A stretch of 64,000 nucleotides of DNA from Alphaproteobacteria bacterium (GTDB lineage: Bacteria > Pseudomonadota > Alphaproteobacteria > Bin95). The stretch lies in contig CAXXWS020000003.1 in assembly GCA_963665325.3 (NCBI GenBank), positions 672,001 to 736,000 on the forward strand, in the 5' to 3' direction. The notes beneath the pieces are model-generated. The model was not told the DNA's origin. It did no database searches and was given only the letters and a program-made list of their open reading frames with translations. Position numbers and translations under genes: made by a program. Positions 7,262 to 33,694 of this stretch are shown here, piece after piece (the first letter of the stretch is position 1; each line of letters starts with the position of its first letter).

Positions 7262-8711
<1,450 letters not shown>

Positions 8712-27694: not shown

Positions 27695-28549
27695 TTATTC
27701 GGGCGGCTTGCCTCCCGGCCATACCGGGCTCCCGGCGAGGTCCGGCCATCCGATAGGCGCGCGGCAGCCTTCCGCCGCTGCGGCGGGGTCGAGCGCCGCA
27801 TCCCAGTTTCCCGCGACATAACGGTGCCCGTTCCAGGCGCCTCCCTCATCGGAGCACAGCCACAGCACCGGCGGCACCATCGCCGAGGGCCGGACCATCG
27901 CCGCGCGGTCGATGCCGGACTCTTCGGGCACCATCGGGGTATCCGTCGGGCCGCCGGGGACAACGACATTCACGGTCACCCCACTGTCGCCGAATTCCGT
28001 GGCATGGCCGGCGGACATCGCCTCGAAGCCGGCTTTCACGGGTCCGTAGGGATGGAACTTCCCGCGCAGCATGGTGAAGAAGCTGGTGGTGACATTGACG
28101 ATGCGCCCCCATCTCCGGTCGAGCATCCCCCCGACCGAGGCGCGGGTCATGTACCACGCCCCGGACAGGTTCACCGCGACGAACCGGTCCCAGACCTCGG
28201 GGTCTATCTCGTGGATTTCGACCAGGTTCGTCATGTGGTCTGCCCGGATGACGCCCATACCCAGCGCACCGTTATTGACGAGGATATCCGGCCCGCCCAG
28301 GCGTTCCCGCACCCGCCCGACCGCCGCCTCGCACTCGGCGCAGCTCGAAATGTCCACCCGCGCCGTAATCAGCCGGCCGGCGGAGGCGTCCGCCTCGTGC
28401 CCCGCCGCAAGCCCGGCGAGCCGCTCCTCGTCGATGTCGAGCGCCGCCACCTTCGCACCCGCGCCCAGCAGTCCGGACACGAATTCCTGCCCGATCCCCC
28501 CGGCCGCCCCGGTCACGATGGCGACCCTGCCTTCGAGTTCCCCGGTCAT
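27695..28549 (-). CDS. Short-chain dehydrogenase/reductase
   Basis: TGAAGGIG, LVNNG, YGPVK (YxxxK); start at ATG 28549 after GGAG. Confidence 0.88.
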   Translation of the reverse strand: MTGELEGRVAIVTGAAGGIGQEFVSGLLGAGAKVAALDIDEERLAGLAAGHEADASAGRLITARVDISSCAECEAAVGRVRERLGGPDILVNNGALGMGVIRADHMTNLVEIHEIDPEVWDRFVAVNLSGAWYMTRASVGGMLDRRWGRIVNVTTSFFTMLRGKFHPYGPVKAGFEAMSAGHATEFGDSGVTVNVVVPGGPTDTPMVPEESGIDRAAMVRPSAMVPPVLWLCSDEGGAWNGHRYVAGNWDAALDPAAAAEGCRAPIGWPDLAGSPVWPGGKPPE

Positions 28550-28719
28550 CTGCATTCTCCCGTCTCGAAATCGTCGCGGCACTGTATTCCCCATCGTCCC
28601 GGAGTGCAGCCGGGAAAGCGCTCCGGACCCGATACCTTCGCCGATCATTGTCTGGGTTTCCGGCAGCGTCCACACTCGCCGCAGAGCGAGGACGGCCGGG
28701 CAGTATCGGGAAGAGTCGA

Positions 28720-29373
28720 ATGACGGAAGAAAGCAGTCCTGCGCCCCCGTCCCGGGCCGGCGCGGTTCAGCGGTGGCGGGAAGGGCTGGCCGCGCTTGCG
28801 GAGCGGGACGGGCGCATCCGGGCGGCGCTGGCCGAGGTCGGGACGCCGCCGATGGCGCTCCGGGGTGCCGGCTTTGCGGCGCTGCTCAGGGCGATTGCGG
28901 CGCAGCAGGTCTCGGCCGCCTCGGCGCGGGCGATCTGGGGGCGGCTGGAGGCAGCGGCCGGCGGCAGGGTTACGCCCGGGACGGTGCTGGCGCTCGGGCC
29001 GGAGGGGCTTCGCGCCGCCGGGCTCTCGTGGCCCAAGGCGGGTTATGCGCTCGCCATCGCCGGTGAGCTTGCGTCCCGGCGCGTCTCGCTCCGGCGCATC
29101 GCGCGGATGCCGGACGAAGAGGCCATCGCCGCACTTTCGGCGCTCAAGGGCATCGGGCGCTGGACGGCGGAAGTCTGGCTGCTGTTCGCGGCAGGCCGCC
29201 CCGACATCTGGCCGGCTGGCGACCTCGCGCTATGCGCCGCCCTGCAAAGGACTCTCGGCCTCGATGCCCGCCCCACGCCGCAGCAGGCCGCGCGGCTCAC
29301 GGAAATCTGGTCGCCCCACCGCAGCGCCGCCGCCATCCTGCACTGGCACATCTACCGCACCTCACCCTCCTGA
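28720..29373 (+). CDS. DNA-3-methyladenine glycosylase II (AlkA-like HhH-GPD)
   Basis: I.AQQVS..SA, GLS..K, LKGIGRWTA, PAGDL, W.PHRS.A. Confidence 0.92.
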   Translation: MTEESSPAPPSRAGAVQRWREGLAALAERDGRIRAALAEVGTPPMALRGAGFAALLRAIAAQQVSAASARAIWGRLEAAAGGRVTPGTVLALGPEGLRAAGLSWPKAGYALAIAGELASRRVSLRRIARMPDEEAIAALSALKGIGRWTAEVWLLFAAGRPDIWPAGDLALCAALQRTLGLDARPTPQQAARLTEIWSPHRSAAAILHWHIYRTSPS

Positions 29374-29608
29374 GCGCGCTTGCGGGACGCCCGGATCGTC
29401 ATTCCGATACCGCGCCATCCAGGGCTGCAAGGCCTGGCGGCGCTGTCCCGGAACGGTCATTGCTATGTGAAATAGTTATGGTTGATAGAGGTAATCGGTA
29501 TTGGTTCTTATAGGAAGCCTTCGCCAATCTGTAGATGTCCGGTTCGGAGTTCACCGGTGCCGGGCAAACGGTTCGAAGGTGACGGCGGAACGCCGCAGAG
29601 AGGCAAAA

Positions 29609-29785
29609 ATGGAAGTTCGACAAGAAGCAGCGAGCCTCGACAGGAATGCCGAAGAGCGCAAGCGGCGGCGCCGGGCCCTGGCGGTCTTGGGGATGGCGCT
29701 GGCCGTGCTGGTCGTGGCGGTCTTCGCGACCTCGGTCGACCCGGCCCCGGCCCAGGCCTGCTTCCTTGGCATCCCCTGCTGGTAA
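29609..29785 (+). CDS. Small protein (58 aa): signal-peptide-like leader plus C-terminal CFLGIPCW
   Basis: GAGAGG SD before the ATG; basic RKRRRR, about 18 hydrophobic residues, then PAPAQA; AT-rich upstream region and its own terminator. Confidence 0.7.
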   Translation: MEVRQEAASLDRNAEERKRRRRALAVLGMALAVLVVAVFATSVDPAPAQACFLGIPCW

Positions 29786-29809
29786 CAGTTTCCTCCCCTG
29801 CTACCGGCA
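29777..29809 (+). ncRNA. Candidate 3'-UTR hairpin with an anti-SD loop (UUUCCUCCC), cuckoo-like
   Basis: TGCTGGTAACAG pairs with CTGCTACCGGCA (11 of 12 pairs including one G-U); loop TTTCCTCCC at 29789-29797. Confidence 0.4.
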
Positions 29810-29811
29810 AC

Positions 29812-29849
29812 GCAGCCGGCGGGCCCCCACCCGCCGGCTGCTCTCTTTT
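29812..29849 (+). terminator. Rho-independent terminator
   Basis: Perfect 12-bp stem GCAGCCGGCGGG/CCCGCCGGCTGC, loop CCCCCA, tail TCTCTTTT. Confidence 0.8.
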
Positions 29850-29993
29850 GCGCAGGGACCTCCCGCAGACGGGAAGCGAGACAGAACGACGGAACATGAC
29901 ATCCGGAGGACAAGACACGACACATCCAAGGCGGTTCCGCGCCCCGTTTCGCCAGTGTGACGCGAAGGTGGGAGGCGGCGGTGGGCGTGCGTC

Positions 29994-30590
29994 TTACGCG
30001 CGCGTGACCACCAGCCACTCCTTCACCCGCGCTTCCGGGTCCGGGTTCAGCGTGATGTCGGTGACGGCGGAGAGAATGTCGGCGCCGGCCTCCAGCACGC
30101 CGGGCGCGCGCTCGACGGTCAGGCCGCCGATGGCGACCAGCGGCATCGCGCCGACGCGCCGCTTCCACTCGCCGACCCGCTCCAGCCCCTGCGGGCCGAA
30201 GCGCATCTGCTTCAGGATCGTCGGATAGACCGGCCCGAGCGCCACATAGTCGGGCTCCATCGCCAGCGCCCGCTCGAGTTCCGCATCGTCATGCGTGCTG
30301 ACGCCAAGTTGCAACCCCGCCGTGCGGACCGCATCCAGGTCGGCCCCGTCCAGATCCTCCTGGCCGAGATGGACGAAATCGCAGCCTTCCTCGATGGCGA
30401 GCCGCCAGTAGTCGTTCACGATCAGCTGGCAGCCATGCGCCTCGCAAACCGCCTTCGCGGCGCGGACCTCGGCGCGCACTTCGGCCTCGGGACGGTCCTT
30501 GACGCGCAATTGCACCAGCCGGATGCCGTGCGGCACCAGCCGTTCGCACCATTCCGCGCTGTCGAAGATCGGGTAGAACGGGTCAAGCAT
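29994..30590 (-). CDS. thiE: Thiamine-phosphate synthase
   Basis: [40 protein letters not shown]. Confidence 0.95.
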
Positions 30591-31359
30591 CGCCGAGCAC
30601 GGCGCGGCCGATGACGGGCGTGGAAGGCCGGGCCATGTCGCGCGGCTCCATCGGGTCCGCCTCCCAGGCCGTGCGGCCGGCGGCCACCGCCTGCGCGAAG
30701 GCGCCCGCCATCATGGCCGGGTCGCCCGCCTTCGCGACGGCCGTGTTCAGCAGCACGGCATCGTAGCCGAGCTCCATCGCGGCGGCCGCATGGCTCGGCA
30801 GGCCGATGCCGGCATCCACCACCAGCGGCACATCGGGGAAATGCGCCCGCATGGCGCGGAGCGCGAAGACATTGTTGAGTCCGCGCCCGCTGCCGATGGG
30901 CGCGCCCCAGGGCATCAGCACCTCGCAACCGGCCTGGAGCAGCCGCTCCGCCACCACCAGGTCCTCCGTGGTGTAGGGGAAGACCTTGAAGCCGGAATCG
31001 GTGAGGATGCGCGCCGCTTCCACCAGGCCGAAGACATCCGGCTGGAGTGTGTCGTCCTCGCCGATCACCTCCAGCTTGATCCAGTCGGTCTCGAACACCT
31101 CGCGGGCCATCTCCGCCGTCGTCACCGCCTCGCGGACGCTGTGGCAGCCGGCGGTATTAGGCAGCACGCGCACGCCGAGCGAGCGGATCAGCTCCCAGAA
31201 ACCCTGGCCCGCCCGCGCCGCGCCCGACTCGCGCCGGAGCGACACGGTGACGACCTCGACGCCGGACGCGCGGATCGCCTCGCCCAGGACCGCCGGAGAG
31301 GGATATTGCGCCGTGCCGAGGAACAGGCGCGACGAGGGCTCGAAGCCGTAAAAGTCCAA
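30583..31359 (-). CDS. thiG: Thiazole synthase
   Basis: [44 protein letters not shown]; TTG start is uncertain. Confidence 0.96.
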
Positions 31360-31365
31360 AGCCGT

Positions 31366-31569
31366 TCAGCCTCCCTGCATTGGCGCCACGATTTCGACCG
31401 CGTCGCCGTCGGAAAGCGGCGCGGACGCCCTCAGCCCCTTCGGCAGGAAGGTGCCGTTGAGCGCCGTCGCCACCACGGCCCCGTTATAGCCCTTTTCATC
31501 CAGAAGGTCGGCAAGCGTCGCGGCCTCCGTGCGGAGCGTCTCGCCATTCAGTTCGATGCTGACCGTCAT
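31366..31569 (-). CDS. thiS: Sulfur carrier protein ThiS
   Basis: 67 aa; IELNGE, VATALNG, GDAVEIVAPMQGG with the C-terminal GG. Confidence 0.95.
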   Translation of the reverse strand: MTVSIELNGETLRTEAATLADLLDEKGYNGAVVATALNGTFLPKGLRASAPLSDGDAVEIVAPMQGG

Positions 31570-32531
31570 GTCCGCACCCCTTCGCCGAGCACCATGTCCG
31601 CGGCCCTGGCCGCCATCGCCGGGGCGAGCAGGAAACCGTGGCGGTAGAGGCCGTTTACATGGAGCCGCCTGCCGTCGCGGACAACCCGGGGTAGGTTGTC
31701 GGGGAAGGCAGGGCGCGCATCGGTGCCGATCTCGACGACTTCCGCCTCGCCGAAGGCCGGATGGAGGGCATAGACGGCGCTCAACAGCTCGACCATGGAC
31801 CGCGCCGTGATGCGCTTGCGTTCGTCGTTCTCGATGGTGGTCGCGCCCAGCATGTAAACGCCGTCGCCGCGCGGCACGAGATAGATCGGAATACGCGGAT
31901 GGATGAGGCGCACCGTGCGGGTCAGCGCCACCTCGGGGCTGCGGATATAAAGCATCTCGCCCTTCACGCCGCGCAATTCCGGCAGGCGGTCCGCCGCCGC
32001 GAGCCCCCGGCAATCGACGCTCCACTCGGCGTCCGGAACGGCCTCGGTGCCGTAGCGGACCTCGACGCCCCTTGCCTCCAGCTTTCCGACCAGCGCCTCC
32101 AGCGCCCGGCGGGGATCGAGATGGGCCTCGTCGCGGAAGAGCAGCGCCCGCTGAAAGCGCCCTTCCAGGGCGGGCTCCAGCTCGTCGATGCCGGCCTCGT
32201 CGAGCCAGTCGTAGTTTTCCGTGCGGCGAGCGAAGCGCCGGAGCTCGCCGGTGTCCCGGGCCGGTGCGATCACCAGGCTGCCGTGCCGGACCACGCCCGG
32301 CACCCGGGCGGCCCAGAAGTCCGCCGCCCCCTGGCCCAGCGCCACCACCTCCGCCTCGGCATTCTCCCGCTCGCACCAGGGCGCCAGCATGCCGCCGGCA
32401 TACCAGGAGCACTGGTCCGGCCCGAGGCCGGGGCTGCGGTCCACGACCGAGACCTGTGCACCGCGCTCGGCCAGCACGGTGGCGACCGTCAGGCCCGCAA
32501 CGCCTGCGCCGATGACGGCAACGCTCGTCAT
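31566..32531 (-). CDS. thiO: Glycine oxidase ThiO
   Basis: GAGVAG, AGGMLAP, RGVKGE, RPAFPDNLP, NGLYRHGFL; adjacent to thiS. Confidence 0.93.
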   Translation of the reverse strand: MTSVAVIGAGVAGLTVATVLAERGAQVSVVDRSPGLGPDQCSWYAGGMLAPWCERENAEAEVVALGQGAADFWAARVPGVVRHGSLVIAPARDTGELRRFARRTENYDWLDEAGIDELEPALEGRFQRALLFRDEAHLDPRRALEALVGKLEARGVEVRYGTEAVPDAEWSVDCRGLAAADRLPELRGVKGEMLYIRSPEVALTRTVRLIHPRIPIYLVPRGDGVYMLGATTIENDERKRITARSMVELLSAVYALHPAFGEAEVVEIGTDARPAFPDNLPRVVRDGRRLHVNGLYRHGFLLAPAMAARAADMVLGEGVRT

Positions 32532-33694
32532 TCCGCCCGGTATCTCGCCGCGAAGGCCTCGTCGATGGTGACGCCGAGGCCCGGCCGGTCCGGAATCTCC
32601 AGCATCCCGTCCACGACGGTGAAATCCTCCTCCGCGAGTTCGTGCAGCATCGGATTGGCGCCGACGGAATATTCGACGATGAAGCCGCTCGTGGCTGCGG
32701 CCAGCACATGCAGGCCGGCGGCGAAGGTGCAGGCGCCGCCCCAGAGATGCGGGGCGAAGCGGATCTGGTGGGCCGCGGCCAGCGCCTCAATGCGGATGGC
32801 CTCGGTGATGCCGCCCGCGATGGACAGGTCCGGCTGGAAGATGTCCGCGGCGCGCAGCAATGCGAGGTCGCGGAAGGCGAAGCGCGTGAACTCGCTCTCG
32901 CCGCTCGCGATGGGAATGTCGGTCGAGGCCCGGATTTCGGCCTGGCCCGCCTTGTCGTCGGCGGTCACCGGCTCCTCCAGCCAGCCGATGTGGCAGTCAG
33001 CGACGGCACGGCAGAAGCGCTTGGCCTCCGAGACGGCGAAGGTGCCGTGCGCGTCGCAGAAGATGTCGATGTCGGGCCCGAGCCCTTCGCGGGCCGCATG
33101 CACCCGCTCGATGGAGTGGCCCAGCGTCCCGTCGCCGGAGCCGACGCGCATCTTCACCGCCTTGAAACCGCCCCGGTCGAGGAAACTCTGCAGCTCGGCC
33201 ACGATGCCCGCAGTCGGTGCCCAGCCGCCGGAGGCATAGGCCGGCATGGCGGCATGGCGGCGCCCGCCGATCAGCTGCCAGACGGGCCGGTCCAGTTCCT
33301 TGCCGAGAATGTCCCAAAGCGCCATGTCGATGCCGGAAATCGCCGAGACCGTGAGCCCGCGCCGGCCCAGCACCGGGAAGACATGGCCGCGGGCGATCGC
33401 GTAATGCGCCCGGCTGCCGTTGTACATGACGTCCCAGAGGCGGGAGATGTCGCGCGGGTCCTCGCCGACCAGCAGCGGCCCGAGTTCCCGCTCGACGCAG
33501 GCCGCAAGCGCCAGATTGTTGCCGGCCGAACCGACCGCCGCCTTCGCCTCGCCGAAGCCGGTAATGCCGGCGTCGGTCTCGACGCGCACCAGGGTCGAGT
33601 CGAAGGCGCGCGTGACACCGAAATCGCTTCGATGCTGGCGTTCCTCCGGGATCGGCACATGCAGCCAGTCCGCACTGACCCTCGTGATTTTCAT
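32528..33694 (-). CDS. Mandelate racemase/muconate lactonizing enzyme family (probable acid dehydratase)
   Basis: SGIDMALWDI.GK, KMR, metal ligands in DAH, EEP and GES, QPD, PH, PGLG. Confidence 0.9.
   Translation of the reverse strand: MKITRVSADWLHVPIPEERQHRSDFGVTRAFDSTLVRVETDAGITGFGEAKAAVGSAGNNLALAACVERELGPLLVGEDPRDISRLWDVMYNGSRAHYAIARGHVFPVLGRRGLTVSAISGIDMALWDILGKELDRPVWQLIGGRRHAAMPAYASGGWAPTAGIVAELQSFLDRGGFKAVKMRVGSGDGTLGHSIERVHAAREGLGPDIDIFCDAHGTFAVSEAKRFCRAVADCHIGWLEEPVTADDKAGQAEIRASTDIPIASGESEFTRFAFRDLALLRAADIFQPDLSIAGGITEAIRIEALAAAHQIRFAPHLWGGACTFAAGLHVLAAATSGFIVEYSVGANPMLHELAEEDFTVVDGMLEIPDRPGLGVTIDEAFAARYRAE

Follow-up and report, generated by a model that had tools for sequence, protein, structure and literature searches.

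A two-cysteine micro-peptide gene on an alphaproteobacterial RNA family with an anti-Shine-Dalgarno hairpin: a candidate dual-purpose RNA

Upstream of the thiE gene in a stretch of 64,000 nucleotides (nt) from an Alphaproteobacteria bacterium (contig CAXXWS020000003.1, positions 672,001 to 736,000; hereafter the window) lies an open reading frame (ORF) of 58 codons, whose predicted product consists of a positively charged N-terminal part, a hydrophobic segment and a C-terminal tail of eight residues with two cysteines. The question raised by this locus is whether so short a frame is a gene and, if so, whether the peptide, the transcript or both are functional. A preliminary description, made from the sequence alone, had taken the ORF for a stand-alone gene of a candidate secreted cyclic peptide. 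The comparison with its homologs leads us to regard the ORF as a real gene, the conserved functional part of which would be the tail. The gene appears to belong to a dual-purpose RNA, which would specify an exported, probably cleaved Cys-Cys peptide and would also act as an anti-Shine-Dalgarno riboregulator resembling the alpha-r14/cuckoo RNAs; the probability of this reading is put at about 0.5. Export, cleavage, disulfide formation, a signalling role and a trans-acting function of the RNA are the parts of it that we infer. The earlier interpretation was partly supported, and the observation beneath it was confirmed: the ORF, a Shine-Dalgarno (SD) site, an AT-rich tract and a terminator of 12 bp beginning 27 nt past the stop codon are all present in the sequence.

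Homologs of the peptide and selection on its tail

The strongest evidence for a gene is its homologs. A profile built from nine peptides of the same genus was scored against 1.84e9 protein representatives, and 17 proteins were matched at E<=1e-3, 14 of them 48-71 amino acids (aa) long. No name was attached to these proteins other than 'hypothetical protein', which was given to one. Six of the matches (P0010, P0012-P0015 and P0017) share the tail and have leaders unlike that of the window copy; in P0012-P0014 the tail is identical to that of the window behind unrelated leaders. The earlier suggestion to look for paralogs that combine differing leaders with a constant A-x-A|C...C tail was borne out in this way. 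The possibility of a truncated longer protein, also raised earlier, was rejected, as all homologs end at the tail save P0018, a miscalled read-through of 192 aa.

The tail of the family follows the pattern P-A-x-A-C-[FL]-L-(P)-G-I-P-C-(W/R). Across an alignment of 15 sequences, from which P0002, P0003, P0005, P0006 and P0009 were omitted, M1, A(-3), A(-1), C, G, I, P and C are invariant, and within the c-region A(-3) and A(-1) are fixed and P(-4) is nearly fixed. The A-x-A is also present in the five omitted sequences, so that the motif which the preliminary description had noted before the tail is invariant in 20/20 peptides. The peptides have the small residues at -3 and -1 and the helix breaker expected at a type I signal peptidase site. 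The N-part has a net positive charge in all 20 (its last 8 residues in 19/20), as in the n-region of a Sec-type signal peptide. The type II lipobox has the pattern [LVI][ASTVI][GAS]C. It is fitted by none of the 20 family peptides, in which the residues preceding the Cys are A-[QHY]-A, and the earlier statement that AQA-C is not a lipobox can be extended to the whole family. A twin arginine near the h-region was seen in 14/20 peptides and was missing in six, four of which are among the six distant relatives; this count covers the arginine pair of the Tat motif alone.

No Pfam or NCBIfam model matched above its cut-off, and the sub-threshold matches were only to basic-plus-helix models. A word-indexed search of 5.8e9 proteins returned two candidates, neither of them at E<=1, and tblastn against plasmids with P0001 and P0015 as queries gave no match. 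The best score in the ESM Atlas was 0.78, and the clusters were unnamed. When 400 other genomes across the class (208 families) were searched, no match was obtained with the 15-sequence alignment (16 candidates scored per genome) or with a degenerate DNA pattern of the tail, and the peptide profile found nothing in two sister genera (0/10 and 0/10 genomes). The tail strings did not occur in the published literature that was searched.

Selection was assessed from five phylogenetically independent pairs as the ratio of non-synonymous to synonymous change (pN/pS). The ratio was 1.14 for the N-part, 1.05 for the hydrophobic segment and 0.31 for the last 14-15 codons, which comprise the c-region and the tail; in the latter there were 7 non-synonymous changes against 22.8 expected at pN = pS (P = 1e-4). 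The dN/dS comparison that the preliminary description had called for thus sets a tail at 0.31 against a leader at ~1.1. The extra states in the c-region and tail are distributed over the three codon positions as 4/2/15, with 15/21 at the third position (binomial p = 4e-4), and the synonymous variation of the tail affects Leu, Gly, Ile, Pro and Ala codons. For the whole ORF pN/pS was ~0.5-1.5, which by itself would argue against a gene; the signal is regional.

Further properties of the frame were in line with coding. A metagenome variant in which CTC CTG is changed to CTT TTG keeps Leu-Leu and destroys a CCUCC. The indels observed are in frame: the subtypes differ by one whole Pro codon, and a contig from an RNA library carries a 6-nt deletion. 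The G+C content at third codon positions (GC3) was 0.84-0.93 in the peptide-bearing copies, compared with 0.89 and 0.91 in thiE and its neighbour and 0.65-0.86 in the other copies. The hydrophobic segment avoids charge, in that a run exposed to random substitutions of the observed density rarely stays uncharged (product of five fractions 10^-3.1, a rough control). It is proposed that selection preserves the tail and that the leader need merely stay hydrophobic.

The RNA family and a proposed mechanism

Positions 29455-29860 were used as a blastn query against 37 genomes of the bacterial family, and 16 of these matched, including 13/16 other genomes of the same genus, at 1-4 places each. With a covariance model of the 3' 82 positions, 28 full-length 3' modules were recovered from 14/37 genomes, all of one genus (14/17 genomes of that genus), and none from the two sister genera (0/10 and 0/10 genomes). 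This recurrence of the unit, 28 times in related genomes, is far beyond chance. The public records that contain the 3' module are metagenome-assembled genomes named 'Alphaproteobacteria bacterium', one being labelled 'Defluviicoccus sp.'.

The copies have in common an upstream box, a 5' hairpin on GUCCGG, a hairpin with a UUUCCUCCC(C) loop and an almost invariant terminator. The box, ...TTATG.. followed after ~11 nt by ..AA[AT]CGGTATTGG, was in the same register in 32/33 copies examined, and its match was absent from the 33rd (L086). The arm GTCCGGTTCGG of the 5' hairpin is kept in nearly all copies, and the 20-column alignment blocks with this arm had a mean identity of 0.82 at locus B and 0.91 at locus C. 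Purine-rich SD-like sites occupy the same position in the other peptide-bearing copies. When the 28 copies were folded singly, CCUCC was found in the loop of the predicted 3' hairpin in every one, with inner stems that differ. In the outer helix of this hairpin, which was given by hand, 84% of cells were paired and 3/8 pairs were changed on both sides. In the terminator stem 10/12 pairs were invariant across the 28 aligned copies, which says nothing on pairing either way. RNAalifold applied to the family alignment (A3) did not recover the anti-SD hairpin, as indels shift its 3' arm. A second CCUCC-bearing hairpin is restricted to the subtype with the tail CLLPGIPC.

The peptide frame, with hydrophobic segment and tail, is present in 9/28 copies, seven of which are intact with both Cys; the other two carry a Ser (G011:C3) or an in-frame TAG (G013). 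The remaining 19 have no peptide frame and retain the RNA parts. Nine of these are at locus B, where the hydrophobic segment is absent from all and some are also without the first Cys or the stop; five are frameshifted relics at locus C; two are the first copies of tandems at locus A; and three are short forms at locus A, of ~150 nt, from which the ORF is entirely absent. At loci B and C the identity of the box, the 5' hairpin and the 3' module is 0.8-0.97, compared with 0.1-0.6 for the flanks and the middle. As the RNA parts are conserved while their surroundings decay, selection is acting on the RNA parts of the non-coding copies.

Three copies are present in the genome of the window, on a single contig (G000:C4). 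Besides the window copy, there is a peptide-bearing copy with the tail C-L-L-P-G-I-P-C (own2; 243828-244007 within the locus 243755-244007, minus strand, L045/L108), which is syntenic with a copy in G011:C2, and an ORF-less short copy of ~150 nt (about 651420-651572, plus strand, with the matched copy near 651490-651572; about 8010-8160 of locus L107). Locus A lies between a gene for a TupA-like ATP-grasp protein, with a GT4 glycosyltransferase gene farther upstream, and one for a FadD-like acyl-CoA ligase. It holds a peptide-bearing copy in five species and a short RNA-only copy in the window's genome, and the flanks of the short copies in G006 and G002 are fully or partly common with those of the latter. 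Since the leaders of the peptide's relatives diverge widely and no relative was detected by the profile in the two sister genera, the coding form is provisionally read as ancestral, and the RNA-only copies would be derived from it.

Some features of individual loci were also recorded. At locus A, L047 (G010:C159) and L106 (G004:C279) each have two tandem copies ~700 nt apart, the first without the hydrophobic segment (tail A-Q-A-R-C-P-G-I-P-C-R) and the second intact. The locus A copy of G016 (L029/L102, G016:C1 about 1558000-1559400) is followed immediately, on the other strand, by a long ORF judged by eye to be transposase-like, and the short copy of the window's genome is followed by a DDE transposase at a distance of ~2.3 kb. 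The locus B copies (L032, L033, L035, L037, L038, L040, L041, L046 and L049) have a 40-nt middle block, corresponding to the old frame M-R-N-A-N-G-M-S-K-T-G-G, with an identity of 0.83-0.86 compared with 0.14-0.24 in its surroundings. This was calculated from eight aligned copies, with L033 omitted as nearly identical to L032, and the block may represent a further functional part of the RNA that is peculiar to locus B.

The following mechanism is proposed for the dual-purpose RNA. The positive N-part would hold the N-terminus in the cytoplasm, and the hydrophobic segment of ~21 residues would enter the inner membrane, so that the short C-terminal tail would come to lie in the periplasm. Type I signal peptidase would most likely cleave after A-x-A and release free C-F-L-G-I-P-C-W or, in the sister subtype, C-L-L-P-G-I-P-C; oxidation of the cysteine pair of the free peptide in the periplasm could then close a ring. 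An uncut precursor would display the same tail on a membrane anchor. The 3' end of the transcript is predicted to form a hairpin that presents UUUCCUCCC before the strong terminator and partly overlaps the stop. Its loop probably pairs with the ribosome-binding sites of other mRNAs, in the manner of an anti-Shine-Dalgarno riboregulator, and the paralogs without a peptide frame would retain this riboregulator part. Because the stop codon lies in the hairpin stem, a ribosome terminating there would be expected to melt the hairpin, and translation and RNA action would then be mutually exclusive uses of one molecule. The function of the RNA is suggested by its conservation in the ORF-less copies and by its likeness to the cuckoo/alpha-r14 RNAs.

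Alternative explanations and known systems

A number of observations weigh against the dual-purpose reading. The unit proved not to be the stand-alone gene of the preliminary description: the RNA family to which it belongs, with its anti-SD hairpin, counts 28 copies, 19 of them without a peptide frame. The pN/pS is ~1 across three quarters of the ORF, and one of the peptide-bearing frames (G013) is interrupted by the in-frame TAG. The 5' arm of the anti-SD hairpin is made up of the codons for the last Cys and for W/R together with the stop, and in copies of the own2 type the C-L-L-P codons read CCUCCUGCC in an ar14-like hairpin loop. As tail codons sit in hairpin stems, part of the conservation of the tail is shared with RNA constraints. 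The Cys pair stressed earlier is usual in the family, but the first Cys is missing in P0005, P0006 and P0009 (3/14 small database proteins) and the second is replaced by Ser in the genus copy G011:C3. Likewise, the C-X5-C spacing of the ring proposed for the window peptide holds for the CFLGIPC subtype, whereas the CLLPGIPC subtype has C-x6-C, and the ring size is not fixed. The fold of the whole transcript was no better than that of shuffled sequences (z = -0.81), and the window copy had no match to ar14 or CcsR at E<=10. The length of the hydrophobic run, which is taken up below, belongs with these points.

The signs of transcription are to be read with the same reserve. Part of the stretch was present in 20/24 listed public runs, six of which are RNA libraries. 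In the region 29300-30000, RNA libraries of three studies gave contigs of 281, 245 and 211 nt; these occupy 29541-29821, 29574-29818 and 29612-29828, and all three end in the 5' half of the terminator (29818-29828). Parts of the window that such contigs do not cover were given no weight. The check on transcription suggested in the preliminary description therefore did yield RNA-library contigs that cover the unit, but they are a weak hint at a discrete transcript, as Logan contigs carry no strand, transcript ends or expression level. A further contig of 159 nt from a size-fractionated metatranscriptome (X20; 29432-29590) spans the presumed promoter as well as the leader, a further reason for reserve. 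Of its nine differences from the window, six are listed as G>A; the contig was given no weight and could reflect read-through, DNA carry-over or a related strain.

A serious alternative, although a somewhat unlikely one, is an uncleaved single-pass membrane microprotein. The product would then be a signal anchor in N-in/C-out orientation, with a tail of ~14 residues, (D/E)-P-A-x-A-C-..-G-I-P-C, tethered at the periplasmic face and active there, where it might for instance bind or modulate a protein of the membrane or the periplasm; the context of the RNA family would be unchanged. The uncharged run of 21-26 residues found in 19/20 peptides, with a Kyte-Doolittle mean of at least 2.17, has the length of a transmembrane segment, and in the window copy the hydrophobic core without its small polar end is ~17-18 residues long. 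The h-region of cleaved signal peptides is typically of about 7-15 residues. Conservation also starts several residues before A-x-A, at (D/E)-P-A, and signal peptidase is not known to need conservation that far; moreover, variants with a single Cys persist. Cleavage is favoured by the Pro(-4) and the invariant A(-3) and A(-1), which make up the classic type I pattern, and a pN/pS of ~1 in the N-part and helix suits a disposable leader better than a working anchor. On the side of cleavage, the most specific form of the dual-purpose reading combines a new dual-function RNA that encodes a Sec-exported, disulfide-cyclised signal of 7-8 residues, extracellular or periplasmic, with a 3' anti-SD riboregulator and a preserved transition from peptide mRNA to small RNA (sRNA; 9 versus 19 copies). 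We regard this full combination as unlikely.

It is improbable that the unit is purely a regulatory sRNA, with an ORF that is untranslated or translated without function. The peptide-like conservation would in that case be a by-product of anti-SD and hairpin constraints in a G+C-rich genome in which long open frames are common. Such an origin would account for the 19/28 frame-less copies with their RNA parts kept, for the ORF-less short forms that are syntenic with peptide-bearing forms at locus A, for the pN/pS of ~1 across most of the ORF, for the overlap of the tail codons with hairpins and CCUCC-like motifs, and for the in-frame stop in one copy. It is at odds with the database proteins that have leaders of <~30% identity and still keep a positive N-part, a hydrophobic run of 21-26 residues and an identical tail, and equally with the changes in the tail (15/21 on third positions), the synonymous changes that break CCUCC and keep Leu-Leu, the in-frame indels and a gene-like GC3 in the peptide-bearing copies only. 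Far less probable is a type I toxin, that is, a small hydrophobic membrane peptide whose structured mRNA would be silenced either through its anti-SD hairpin or by an antitoxin in the form of a sibling RNA. The peptide does have a small size, a hydrophobic character and a basic N-part, the unit occurs in several copies that are patchily distributed and not syntenic in the genus, the CCUCC hairpin of the same RNA could mask the SD, and ORF-less sibling RNAs exist. The conserved part, however, is the periplasmic tail and not the helix (pN/pS 0.31 versus 1.05), the sibling RNAs are homologous and not antisense to the mRNA, no antisense promoter or convergent RNA was seen at the locus (the contig data being strandless), and the folding of the window transcript is not unusual.

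The type I toxins Hok, TisB and AapA1 are hydrophobic peptides of <60 aa with a structured mRNA that has SD-masking potential and with a multi-copy, patchy distribution. The unit described here is comparable to them in size, hydrophobicity, SD-masking potential and multi-copy patchiness, and differs in that selection is on the extracytoplasmic tail and not on the helix, and in that no antisense partner was found (with strandless contigs). The peptide can also be compared with the Phr/AimP-type pro-peptides of Firmicutes and their phages, in which the precursor is nearly all export leader and the active part is at the extreme C-terminus. The precursor here is likewise mostly leader, with a short tail at its extreme C-terminus. 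Unlike in those systems, no cognate receptor gene was found among the flanks of the nine peptide-bearing copies, the host is a Gram-negative alphaproteobacterium and the Cys pair suggests a disulfide ring. A precursor of a ribosomally synthesised and post-translationally modified peptide (RiPP) with adjacent enzymes was rejected, as the flanks vary among copies.

The RNA part resembles the alpha-r14/cuckoo (RF02344) and CcsR (RF02791) families, as far as the available text on these describes them, in its variable stems, in the CCUCC-type anti-Shine-Dalgarno loop followed by a terminator, and in the presence of several sibling copies per genome. According to the accessible part of the published account, the alpha-r14/cuckoo RNAs have two to four adjacent hairpins, each with the loop CCUCCUCCC, and are thought to pair with the ribosome-binding sites of other mRNAs (PMC4615179). 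Compared with that account, the loop here is UUUCCUCCC(C) and not CCUCCUCCC, and there is one clear motif hairpin (28/28 copies) instead of two to four. The RNAs described here also differ in their upstream box and in having a conserved small ORF or remnants of one, and all of their matches to alpha-r14 and CcsR are below the Rfam gathering score. The last 111 nt of own2 span the whole ar14 model of Rfam in an alignment that scores 40.7 bits (gathering score 58.8), and own2 gives 20 bits against 65.3 for CcsR1. In own2 the A-H-A codons pair with the G-I-P codons around the loop CCUCCUGCC. A rare Ile codon of own2, ATA, is kept in four near-identical variants and lies, in the ar14 alignment, in the 3' arm of the hairpin opposite the His codon CAT; it may be a codon that serves both peptide and RNA.

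A review of dual-function sRNAs lists ten characterised small proteins and, in its accessible part, mentions a signal peptide on none of them, Psm-mec being secreted without one (PMC12310071). The unit shares with RNAIII/Hld, Psm-mec, Pel/SagA and SgrS/SgrT, as these are presented there, a short transcript that is both peptide-coding and regulatory, and some of their peptides leave the cell (PMC12310071). It differs from the systems in that part of the review in the predicted Sec-type leader on the peptide and in the many RNA-only paralogs of the family, and both functions are here read from sequence evolution. In Sinorhizobium, one third of 54 newly found translated small ORFs were on annotated sRNAs, according to the accessible part of the report (PMC10117765), and coding sRNAs are therefore not exotic in the class. 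No relevant publication was found for Defluviicoccus together with small RNAs, all four matches being unrelated reviews.

Members of Defluviicoccus are glycogen-accumulating organisms of wastewater plants, and a secreted peptide or an RNA family directed at ribosome-binding sites could, if real, bear on their physiology. If the dual-purpose reading is correct, an unannotated family of exported micro-peptides would exist in a Gram-negative lineage; to our knowledge, signals that consist of a leader and a tiny cargo are essentially undescribed in such lineages. The 28 copies at several conserved loci would form a natural series from coding to RNA-only genes, and with this series the long-debated descent of sRNAs from decayed protein genes could be tested directly. 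The unit would also be a dual-function RNA whose protein carries an export leader, of which no example is described in the accessible part of the review cited above (PMC12310071).

The window locus

The features of the window copy are listed in Table 1.

Table 1. Features of the unit in the window (positions are those of the 64,000-nt stretch)
Feature	Position	Strand	Remarks
Upstream box CTAT..GAAA..TTATGG, ~11 nt, then AATCGGTATTGG	29463..29504	+	Within the AT-rich tract; presumed promoter/regulator site
5' hairpin (GUCCGG...CCGGGC), transcript leader	29536..29566	+	Predicted fold of the window copy
Shine-Dalgarno AGAGAGG	29597..29603	+	Ends five bases 5' of the ATG
ORF, 58 codons	29609-29785	+	ATG 29609, TAA 29783-29785; last 8 residues are the two-Cys tail
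ORF codons 1-22, variable, net positive N-part, C-end RKRRRR	29609..29674	+	pN/pS 1.14; no codon-position bias
ORF codons 23-43, 21-residue uncharged hydrophobic segment	29675..29737	+	Signal-peptide h-region or transmembrane helix; Kyte-Doolittle 19-residue mean 2.66
ORF codons 44-50, D-P-A-P-A-Q-A, c-region with invariant A-x-A	29738..29758	+	
ORF codons 51-58 (C-F-L-G-I-P-C-W) and TAA, conserved tail/cargo	29759..29785	+	
Hairpin, loop shows UUUCCUCCC (29789-29797, anti-Shine-Dalgarno-like)	29777..29809	+	Predicted; overlaps last two codons and stop
Intrinsic terminator, 12-bp stem, 6-nt loop, U-rich tail	29812..29849	+	Stem 29812-29841

The tract 29455-29515 has a G+C content of 36%, compared with 68% for the window, and equally AT-rich windows of 61 nt make up 0.1%. 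The preliminary description had called this tract promoter-like. It is AT-rich and contains the conserved box, but a promoter scan found no sigma-70 consensus in it; the conserved element is a family-specific box. Of the 12 pairs of the terminator stem, 11 are G-C, and the 6-nt loop and stem are followed by TCTCTTTT, which gives the G+C-rich stem-loop and U tract of an intrinsic terminator. It is the single terminator-like site in 29350-30000, where shuffled sequences had a mean of 0.6.

In 28500-33500 the Rfam search at E<=1 yielded neither a TPP riboswitch nor another family, apart from a single chance match to a snoRNA, and the leader of the thi genes is assumed to lie farther upstream on the minus strand. 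A transcription attenuator was rejected, as there is no downstream gene on the same strand and thiE is convergent. The assignment of the downstream gene as thiE was upheld (347.8 bits against a cut-off of 252). The upstream gene (28648-29373, plus strand), which had been called alkA, matched the model NF007641 only weakly (27.2 bits against a cut-off of 229, E = 2.7e-6), and it also gives faint matches to endonuclease III and Ogg.

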